The notes under the pieces are model-generated. The model worked only from the letters and a program-made list of their open reading frames with translations. It ran no database searches and was not told where the DNA came from. Shown here in pieces: positions 12,523 to 24,789 of a stretch of 32,000 bases of DNA. Within the stretch, counting starts at the first letter, position 1. Every line of letters starts with the position of its first letter. A program made the position numbers and the translations under genes. The DNA is from Promethearchaeota archaeon (GTDB lineage: Archaea; Asgardarchaeota; Odinarchaeia; Odinarchaeales; JBHLKK01). The stretch covers positions 5,608 through 37,607 of the forward strand of contig JBHLPL010000002.1 in assembly GCA_048939465.1 (NCBI GenBank), written 5' to 3'.

Positions 12523-12796
12523 CAGAACCACCCATTGACGTGGGCTACTAGGAGTATTTGATATATATTCTTTCTTTTTGTTTCAAACCTTTTGTACCAC
12601 CTCAAGCAAATGAGAGTTCCGCATTGGATTTGGGAATGGTCTTTGTGTTGATTTCGATTGCGCTTTCAGCCTTGATACTGGTCGCTCTAAAGAGAGTAGC
12701 ATAAGTTTAATTAGGTAACGTCAAATTCGTTAATCGATATATGCTAAAAGACGACATTCTTAAAGATCCTAGACGAAAAGTGGAGGATGAACCAAC

Positions 12797-14601
12797 TTGA
12801 TAAGACAACCCATTATATCGTTCTTGGGCCACATCGATGTGGGCAAAACAAGTCTCCTAGATAAGATAAGAGGAACAGTAGTTCAGCTTCGAGAGGCAGG
12901 GGGTATAATGTAGTAGCATAGACTACTCCATGCTAGACCCAGCATATCGGAGCTAGCTTCCTGCCCACTTCCGTTATAACAGCCATAGCAAAAGATCTTC
13001 TAAATCAATTCAAGATCAAAGTTACAATACCAGGATTGCTGGTTGTTGATAGCCCTGGGCATGCAGCATTTATGAACTTGAGAAGAAGAGCCGGGAGCGT
13101 CTGTGACATCGCCATTCTTGTGATTGATGTACTGGCAGGCTTTCAGCCTCAAACACACGAGTCCGTCAACATCCTGAAGGAGAGAAATACTCCGTTCCTG
13201 GTGGCGGCAAATAAGATAGATAGGGTTCCCGGATGGAAAGACAAAGAATCAACATCGTTCTTAGAATCTGTAAAGAAACAGGAAGAGTTTGTTAGGAAGA
13301 ATCTTGATCAGAAAATATACGAAATCGTTGGGGCCTTTTCAACAATAGGTTTTGAATCTGAAAGATTTGACAGAGTGGGAGATTTTACTAAGACCATCGC
13401 CATTGTGCCTACAAGTGCAAGAACTGGAGAAGGGATTGCAGAACTCCTGATGGTAATTGCAGGACTTACCCAACAATACATGATGAAACGTTTGGAGATT
13501 TCATCTGAAGGGGGCAGAGGAACAGTTTTGGAGGTCAAGGAGGAACCGGGGCTGGGAATTACCGTTGACACTGTTATCTATGATGGAGTGATCCACAAGG
13601 GAGACACCATCGTGGTAGGGAGCTTGGGTGATCCTATTGTAACTAAGATACGGGCAGTTCTGCTGCCAAAACCCCTTGATGAGATACGCGACCCCCGCGA
13701 ACGATTTGATCCTGTAAAGGAAGTTCAAGCAGCTGCAGGTATCAAGATAGCAGCACCTGCTCTTGAAGGGGCTATTGCTGGAGCCCCTTTGATTGTCGCG
13801 AACACAGAAAAGGAGATTGAAGAAGCAAAGAACGAAATATTGAGTGAGATTGAAAAGATCAGGATATCGACAGACAAAACAGGGATAATACTTAAGGCAG
13901 ACACGCTAGGTTCTTTAGAAGCTATTCTAAAATACTTCCAGGATCAAGGGATTGCAGTCAGAATAGCCGACGTTGGGGATATTTCAAAAAGAGACATAGT
14001 TGAGGCTGAAGTCGTTAAGGAACTTGATCCGCTTTCAGCGATTGTTCTTGGATTTAATGTCAAAGTACTGCCTGATGCCAAAGAGGAATCGGTTAAACAT
14101 GAAATTCCGATACTCCAAAACAGGATAATTTACCGATTGTTTGAGGAATATGACAATTGGCTATTTGAGAGGAGGGAAGAGCGAAAGAGAGAAGCATTGA
14201 AGACAGCCGTAAAACCAGGAAAGGTAAAAATCATTCCAGAATATATTTTTCGGCAAAGTAAGCCCGCGATCGTCGGTGTTGATGTTCTTAGCGGGCAAAT
14301 AGTCTCTCGGGTCAACTTGATAAAAGAGGATGGGAGCAGAGTAGGAACAATTCTTCAGATACAGGACAAAGGAGAAGTAATTCCTATTGCCAAGGCGGGA
14401 CAAGCTGTCGCCATTTCAATCAGGGGAGCCACCGTTGGTCGACAGATAAATGAGAATGACGTTCTATATGTCGATATGCCAGAAAGAGATGTCAGACTCT
14501 TCAAAGAACGTTTCAGAGACGAACTCTCTGTGGGTGAGTTGGAAGCTTTAGATGAATTAATCGAGATAAAGAGGAAATCAGATCCTACATGGGGTGCATA
14601 A
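12797..14601 (+). CDS. infB: Translation initiation factor aIF5B (IF-2); two exons 12797-12907 and 12937-14601, 591 aa after splicing
   Basis: Exon 1 (TTG) [36 protein letters not shown] joins exon 2 [19 protein letters not shown]; the ORF track shows only the part from 13036. Confidence 0.95.
12908..12936 (+). other. 29-nt BHB-type intron in infB mRNA
   Basis: Outer helix GGG/CCC, central helix GGUA/UGCU, bulges UA^A and AG^A, inner stem UG.AGUAG/CUACU.CA; contains in-frame TAG TAG; removal restores GGI-TQHIG. Confidence 0.88.
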
Positions 14602-23783: not shown

Positions 23784-24789
23784 CTAATCTCTCCAGACAA
23801 TATCAACTTCATCGAGTCGCCATTTTGGCTTTACGCTACTATTTTTTAATTTCAAAACCTGTCCATGTTTGTACTGTAACATCCCTGTCCATGCTATCAT
23901 CGCTCCATTGTCCCCAGAGAATCTGTTCGAGACCACACGAAACTTTGCATTATGCTCCTTAGCAATGGATTTAAGCATCTCCTGCAGTCTTTTGTTTGCA
24001 GCTACACCTCCCGTTAATAGAACAGCAGGCTTTTCAGTGTGTGCGAGGGCACGCTCCGTAACTTCGGTCAACATTGAAAATGCAACTTCCTGTAAGCTGA
24101 AACAAAGATCTTCGATTCTGTTCTCATGAAGTTTGTTTGTTGCAGCAGTTAGGAGACCGGAATAGGATAAGTCCATACCTTTGACAGTGTAGGGTAAATC
24201 AATGAACCGCTTGCCTTTCTTTGCTAACCTTTCTATCTTGGGGCCACCTGGATGTTTGAGTCCTGCTGAACGCGCAAAAGCATCGAGCAAATTACCTATG
24301 GGAATATCTAGGGTTTCCCCAAACACACGATACCTACCTCCGTCATAGGCCGCGACTATGGTATTGCCACCTGAAACATACAAAGTAACCGGATCTTCCG
24401 TATTGGAAGCAAGGCGCCCTATCTCTATATGAGCGACACAGTGATTCACACCGACGAGCGGGACTTCAGTAACTAACGCCAAAGCTCGAGCAGCAACAGC
24501 AGCAGTCCTAAGACAGGGACCTTTCAGCAAACTGTTGGCAGAGTTTTAAACCGGGTCCCTGAGAGAATGCCACGAATTCAATGTCGCTCAGGCTTATCTT
24601 TGCTTCTTCTACTGCTCTTACAATAGTTTTCTCTGCAACCCGTACATGGTGTTGGGCCGCTTCTCGAGGATGGATGCCACCCGTTTCTGGTTGATACACG
24701 CTTTCAACACTCGTAAGGATTCTTCCTTCAGGCGTTACTATGCCAACACTGAACGTGTGGGCAGTTCCCTCAATACCCAAACCCACCAC
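23784..24789 (-). CDS. kae1: tRNA t6A synthase Kae1; two exons 24789-24548 and 24522-23784, 326 aa after splicing
   Basis: LGIEGTAHTFSVG, GGIHPREAAQHH, AFSQGPGL|GPCLR, VNHCVAH, VSGGNT, GGVAAN, DNGAMIA; the ORF track splits it into two frames. Confidence 0.95.
24523..24547 (-). other. 25-nt BHB-type intron in kae1 mRNA
   Basis: 8-bp outer helix CAGGGACC/GGUCCCUG, central helix CGGU/GCUG, bulges UU^A and AA^A, inner stem AAACU/AGUUU; removal restores GPGLGPCLR. Confidence 0.92.

Follow-up and report, generated by a model that had tools for sequence, protein, structure and literature searches.

For more than 20 years, cbf5 has been the sole archaeal protein gene in the searchable literature whose coding sequence contains a tRNA-type intron, and a BHB intron of the cbf5 pre-mRNA was reportedly described by Watanabe in 2002 and by Yoshinari in 2006. 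Its splicing has been demonstrated by cDNA and by in vitro cleavage. Introns of this gene occur in Crenarchaeota (Desulfurococcales and Sulfolobales) and measure 16–44 bp, and most of them form a relaxed BHB; in BHB substrates including the cbf5 pre-mRNA, the cut falls between bulge residues 2 and 3 (Yokobori 2009, PMC2738675). Translational bypass in gene 60 of phage T4 leaves the RNA intact: within an essential gene, ribosomes pass over a short gap that contains stops and a hairpin, and they need matched take-off and landing codons to do so. The XBP1 mRNA intron, 26 nt long, is a further case of a very short interruption. The splicing proposed for the locus described below resembles that of HAC1/XBP1, where proteins alone, without a spliceosome, remove a very short frame-shifting mRNA intron and a tRNA ligase (RtcB in metazoa) then joins the exons; mRNA left unspliced yields a different or truncated product. 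HAC1/XBP1 differs in its endonuclease, IRE1, which recognizes paired stem-loops where EndA recognizes the BHB, and in being regulated by stress. For the Asgard archaea, an October 2026 preprint on introns covers tRNA genes only, and our full-text literature searches returned no report of an aIF5B intron or of BHB introns in Asgard protein genes.

In the window, by which we mean the whole 32,000-nt stretch of DNA analyzed, which comes from an Asgard archaeon, the infB gene encoding aIF5B is interrupted between REAGGI and TQHIG by 29 nt. Judging from the sequence, these nucleotides (12908–12936) are very probably a spliced archaeal BHB intron within the infB coding sequence. The features of the locus are as follows.

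12782–12786, plus strand: SD-like GGAGG, 10 nt 5' of the infB TTG start, read in the sequence.
12797–12907, plus strand: infB (aIF5B) exon 1, 37 codons, from the P-loop GHIDVGKT to REAGGI (translation; TIGR00491 positions 2–37).
12899–12901, plus strand: 5' strand GGG of the outer helix h, pairing with CCC 12938–12940 (3/3 pairs in 8/8 sequences).
12902–12905, plus strand: exon strand GGUA of the central 4-bp helix H, pairing with UGCU 12931–12934.
12906–12908, plus strand: bulge 1, UAA, with a predicted cut between A12907 and A12908.
12908–12936 (equivalently 12909–12937), plus strand: candidate 29-nt BHB intron, with UAG UAG in frame just after the 5' splice site.
12909–12930, plus strand: intron hairpin h', 12909–12916 against 12923–12930 with a 6-nt loop at 12917–12922 (7/8 pairs).
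12931–12934, plus strand: intron strand UGCU of the central helix H, pairing with GGUA 12902–12905.
12935–12937, plus strand: bulge 2, AGA, with a predicted cut between G12936 and A12937.
12937–14601, plus strand: infB exon 2, 554 codons and the stop, beginning TQHIGAS (switch I; TIGR00491 positions 38–590, E 2e-219).
12938–12940, plus strand: 3' strand CCC of the outer helix h, within the codons ACC CAG, pairing with GGG 12899–12901.

The gene spans from the TTG at 12797 to the stop at 14601 on the plus strand. REAGGI ends with AUA at 12905–12907, after which the exon-1 frame reads AUG UAG UAG, and TQHIGAS resumes from the ACC at 12937 in a different frame that stays open without a break to the stop at 14601. 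The insert adds the UAG-UAG pair and a frame shift, and a repeated A makes its boundary ambiguous by one base, such that either 12908–12936 or 12909–12937 can be removed. Translation of infB minus the 29 nt gives a 591-aa protein in which the exons adjoin at 37|38 of TIGR00491 with no residue lost or duplicated (NCBIfam profile search). The predicted spliced junction is GGGGGUAUA|ACCCAGCAU.

The junctions fold as a strict hBHBh' motif, with two 3-nt bulges on opposite strands, a 4-bp helix between them and the helices h and h' at the flanks. The outer helix is lengthened past an A.A mismatch by GC 12896–97 pairing with GC 12942–43, the pairs of helix H are G.U, G-C, U.G and A-U (two of them G.U pairs), and the h' hairpin has a single U.C mismatch, at 12911/12928. 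Applying the published cleavage rule (PMC2738675) places the cuts after A12907 and after G12936 and yields AUA|ACC. By RNAfold, the BHB conformer in this genus has a free energy of −12.5 kcal/mol versus −19.2 kcal/mol for the unconstrained minimum, a fold with a slipped register, symmetric internal loops and an extra outer helix. Relatives have 30-nt and 33-nt inserts at the same site, and the versions examined (L014 and L008) have the canonical BHB as their unconstrained energy minimum. A sequence-only reading of this DNA had reported a 29-nt insert with two stops and a frame shift, drawn an hBHBh' fold around it and placed the cuts after the second base of each bulge to give AUA|ACC and a 591-aa protein; we recovered all of this from the sequence, with every coordinate of the fold in agreement and the joined product contiguous across TIGR00491 positions 37 and 38.

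The infB insert shares with the cbf5 introns its short length, its place in the coding sequence of a conserved gene of the RNA and translation machinery, inside a key catalytic or functional motif, the BHB with a cut between bulge residues 2 and 3, a hetero-oligomeric EndA in the host and a patchy phylogenetic distribution, which implies gain and loss. It differs in lying in switch I of aIF5B in Asgard archaea rather than in cbf5 of Crenarchaeota, and in having a strict hBHBh' where most cbf5 introns have a relaxed BHB (PMC2738675). Splicing of infB is predicted, whereas that of cbf5 has experimental support, and we claim no sequence homology between the two. The likeness to tRNA introns covers the motif, the cleavage rule, the size range and the EndA and RtcB enzymes, and it extends to strand topology: in the canonical tRNA-Gly(GCC) intron of the host, as in infB, the stem is followed by the 4-bp helix, a bulge and the intron hairpin, and then come the second strand of the 4-bp helix, the other bulge and the second strand of the stem. 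Unlike a tRNA intron, the infB substrate is an mRNA without a tRNA body, and the exon halves of its motif are codons, so that the fold has to compete both with the demands of coding and with ribosomes translating the message.

We found inserts at the same switch-I site in eight infB sequences from three Asgard genera, with lengths of 29, 30 or 33 nt. The insert was 29 nt long in all three species of this genus, 33 nt in four genomes from one genus of another family and 30 nt in one genome of a third family. Their inner stems differ without sequence kinship, the h' of the relatives having 8–13 pairs versus 7/8 here, and all eight nonetheless form a strict hBHBh' in an identical register. When the eight inserts were aligned, 96.3% of cells were paired and two-sided changes occurred in 7 of 17 pairs; none of 500 shuffles equaled this score, and sliding the partner by 1–3 columns reduced pairing to 24–35%. 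Every cell of helix H was paired (100%) across the eight sequences, with exchanges between G-C and G.U and among C-G, U.G and U-A, and helix h' had two-sided changes in 6 of its 8 pairs across genera. The covariation set comprises three genera only and hence few independent events. One of the inserts (G042) starts with G, making its register unambiguous, and the cleavage rule is still satisfied. A strain variant carries the compensatory pair 12910 G>A and 12929 C>U, which keeps the base pair; these two are among the 7 differences in its 103-nt contig, all of which fall inside the intron.

The exon codons that take part in pairing were invariant, reading GGG GGY AUA|ACC C in 8/8 intron-bearing infB sequences. 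Among intron-less orthologues, GGG was used for that glycine in 0/28 and ACC for that threonine in 4/28. The fixed synonymous codons GGG GGY AUA ACC could serve as a footprint for finding such introns or their recent loss. In a single-gene tree built from the C-terminal 520 residues, the sister of this genus was another genus from its order that lacks the intron, and the other two intron-bearing genera fell in a separate clade. The topology therefore implies either at least two gains at one phosphodiester bond or one old gain followed by several losses.

Among the 370 Asgard genomes with a match, there were at least eight putative infB introns in switch I and at least four in the P-loop. The latter belong to a fourth Asgard family (L010, L012, L074 and L075), where a different, conserved 29-nt insert stands right after GHIDHGK, at ~1310–1338 and ~1481–1509. 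Its 9-bp hairpin is conserved and its BHB is of the relaxed kind, with 3/4 pairs in the central helix and an outer helix that is not clear. In another genome, the infB frame breaks 3' of TQHIGASF (L077; G313:C2, minus strand), between LNRPLNKE and IPIPGLLFIDTPGH, with stops between the two. Either a further short intron, at what would be a third site, or a frameshift introduced by sequencing could account for this break.

The genome encodes the enzymes that tRNA-type splicing would call for. Two ORFs have an EndA domain, one on contig C90 (204 aa) and the other on contig C139 (191 aa). The C90 protein is alpha-like, its nearest match being 3P1Z_B, the catalytic subunit in the heterotetrameric Aeropyrum enzyme (E 1.5e-44); the C139 protein, as read from its sequence, apparently lacks the catalytic His and resembles a structural, beta-like subunit. 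Such a pair of EndA paralogues is the rule in 41 Asgard genomes, and Asgard EndA has been assigned to the (αβ)2 type with an L1 loop conferring broad specificity (PMC5829648). We also found two RtcB genes. One of them (C31:2961–5708, minus strand) aligns to the Pfam profile as two segments (positions 1–57 and 45–426) that lie ~1.4 kb apart in one open frame of 973 codons, and it seems to carry an intein. For the infB insert itself an intein was excluded, its length not being a multiple of 3 and UAG UAG lying in frame.

We weighed the BHB intron against other accounts of the interruption, some of which also act at the level of RNA or translation. The 29 nt might leave the RNA by another route, by self-splicing as a ribozyme or through cleavage by some unknown hairpin-recognizing endonuclease, a possibility left some room by the fact that EndA is the predicted enzyme. 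However, 29 nt is far below the size of group I and group II introns, whose ribozyme core takes hundreds of nucleotides, and Rfam models matched nothing in 12700–13100 at E ≤ 1 and nothing in the whole window at their gathering scores. The geometry is moreover exactly what EndA requires, with the predicted cuts at the needed phosphodiester bonds, and we regard another excision route as very unlikely. Highly improbable, in our judgment, is translational bypass or recoding, in which ribosomes would hop over the 29 nt in the style of T4 gene 60 or shift frame. The insert is superficially similar to gene 60 in its short length, its hairpin and the in-frame stops at its start, directly behind the final sense codon, but it lacks the matched take-off and landing codons that gene 60 needs: AUA stands against UAG before the ACC here and against CAA in the 33-nt versions (g16). 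A +1 or −1 frameshift cannot work, with UAG 12934–12936 closing the exon-2 frame upstream and the exon-1 frame stopping at 12911. Bypass also does not predict a 4-bp helix, two 3-nt bulges, covariation between exon and intron or frozen synonymous sites.

Other accounts place the event in the DNA. If infB were a pseudogene, broken by a small insertion and decaying, initiation would proceed without aIF5B or by way of an unassembled copy. The gene as written is truncated after 38 codons, and one infB copy was found in a MAG that is 91% complete, which strictly leaves room for an intact second copy. Against decay, pN/pS across three species of the genus (pS 0.2–0.43) was 0.00–0.05 in exon 1 and 0.08–0.12 in exon 2; both exons are under purifying selection. 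The 591 codons are otherwise free of frame defects, each of the three congeneric MAGs yielded one copy only, and the insert has been retained at one site in three genera with changes that preserve its structure. We hold a pseudogene to be as improbable as bypass. Least probable of all, to the point of being negligible, is an artefact of assembly or sequencing, or a mobile (MITE-like) insertion in the DNA without RNA processing. The source is indeed a metagenome assembly in 152 contigs, but three species-level MAGs share the insert, and it recurs, gap-free and with strain-specific substitutions, in the contigs of independent studies; no joined, intron-less DNA form was seen among those contigs. 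Near-identical DNA occurs in sediment or mangrove samples. As for a mobile element, a blastn-short search found no second copy of the 29-mer in the genome, and the flanks of the insert have no terminal repeats and a target duplication of a single A at most.

For the BHB intron, the course of events would be the following. In the pre-mRNA, the exon segments GGG-GGUA-UA and A-CCC would pair with each other and with UGCU at the 3' end of the intron, while the intron makes its own hairpin, giving a helix, a 3-nt bulge, a 4-bp helix, a 3-nt bulge and a helix. A crenarchaeal-type two-subunit (αβ)2 EndA would cut after A12907 and after G12936. RtcB would then ligate the exons to GGU AUA|ACC CAG, restoring REAGGITQHIG and the 591-aa GTPase, and would probably circularize the 29-mer too. 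Unspliced infB RNA yields a 38-residue peptide only, and splicing would therefore be obligatory. Most likely, this is the tRNA pathway applied to an mRNA; we observed the enzymes and infer their action on this RNA.

The same genome holds further candidate introns. In kae1/tsaD, on the minus strand of the window at 24523–24547, a 25-nt insert forms a strict hBHBh' with helices ACC/GGU and CGGU/GCUG and bulges UUA and AAA, and its removal by the same cleavage rule restores FSQGPG|LGPCLRT. A 31-nt insert in pyrG (C116:17805–17835, minus strand) fits a relaxed motif, with matching outer and central helices and both bulges and a weak inner stem; removing it restores MTKYIFVVGGVMSGI|GKGATAASIGK (SGI|GKG). 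The ahcY gene (AdoHcyase) is spread over contigs C118 and C24 in three fragments, covering profile positions 1–141, 183–221 (with two stops) and, on the other contig, 223–286. ARAGORN called no tRNA gene in the window and only 25 in the genome as a whole (91% complete), most of them intron-bearing and several clearly miscalled. The low count fits heavily interrupted tRNA genes that escape standard finders.

We also estimated how often the motif arises by chance, using a minimal strict form (3+4+≥4 bp) in the shuffled genome (3.9 Mb × 69 lengths). The real genome contained 5,835 matches versus ~4,700 in the shuffles, and the chance rate of the minimal motif was ~2e-5 per fixed position and length. 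The motif by itself is thus common, and its occurrence in infB is significant because the protein alignment fixes the register. After a filter for joining of ORFs, 53 scan matches remained versus ~51 expected by chance. The scan was dropped as a genome-wide counter of introns, real ones not being separable from chance matches. It recovered kae1, but infB slipped through owing to its short first exon and the mismatched position in h'.

The sequence-only reading had taken the insert for a tRNA-type intron, and this interpretation is supported by the covariation across three genera, the purifying selection, the single copy, the contigs of DNA and the presence of EndA and RtcB. It had proposed aligning infB from relatives, which revealed the insert at the site in eight sequences of three genera with the BHB kept, and it knew of no intron in infB, in line with the searchable literature. 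Its treatment of the intron as a single oddity did not survive: other Asgard families also have an insert at this site, and further putative mRNA introns occur in the genome.

If spliced, a strict BHB intron in aIF5B would mean that tRNA-type splicing serves core mRNAs well outside the Crenarchaeota, and that production of a universal translation GTPase is tied to the tRNA-splicing enzymes. Nor does this candidate stand isolated, with covarying inserts in several Asgard families and more putative mRNA introns in the same genome. To gene callers, such genes would look truncated, split or like pseudogenes, and in Asgard MAGs this would distort annotation as well as estimates of completeness and the marker sets used in phylogenomics. 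We see an even chance that some Asgard archaea have a general layer of obligatory EndA/RtcB mRNA splicing, in which tens of genes carry BHB micro-introns of 19–33 nt, preferentially in their most conserved motifs, and in which the switch-I site of aIF5B is of great age or else has been hit repeatedly in separate Asgard lineages. If true, such a layer would mean that protein genes with interruptions, and translation that depends throughout the cell on an RNA-splicing machine, already exist in the closest archaeal relatives of eukaryotes.
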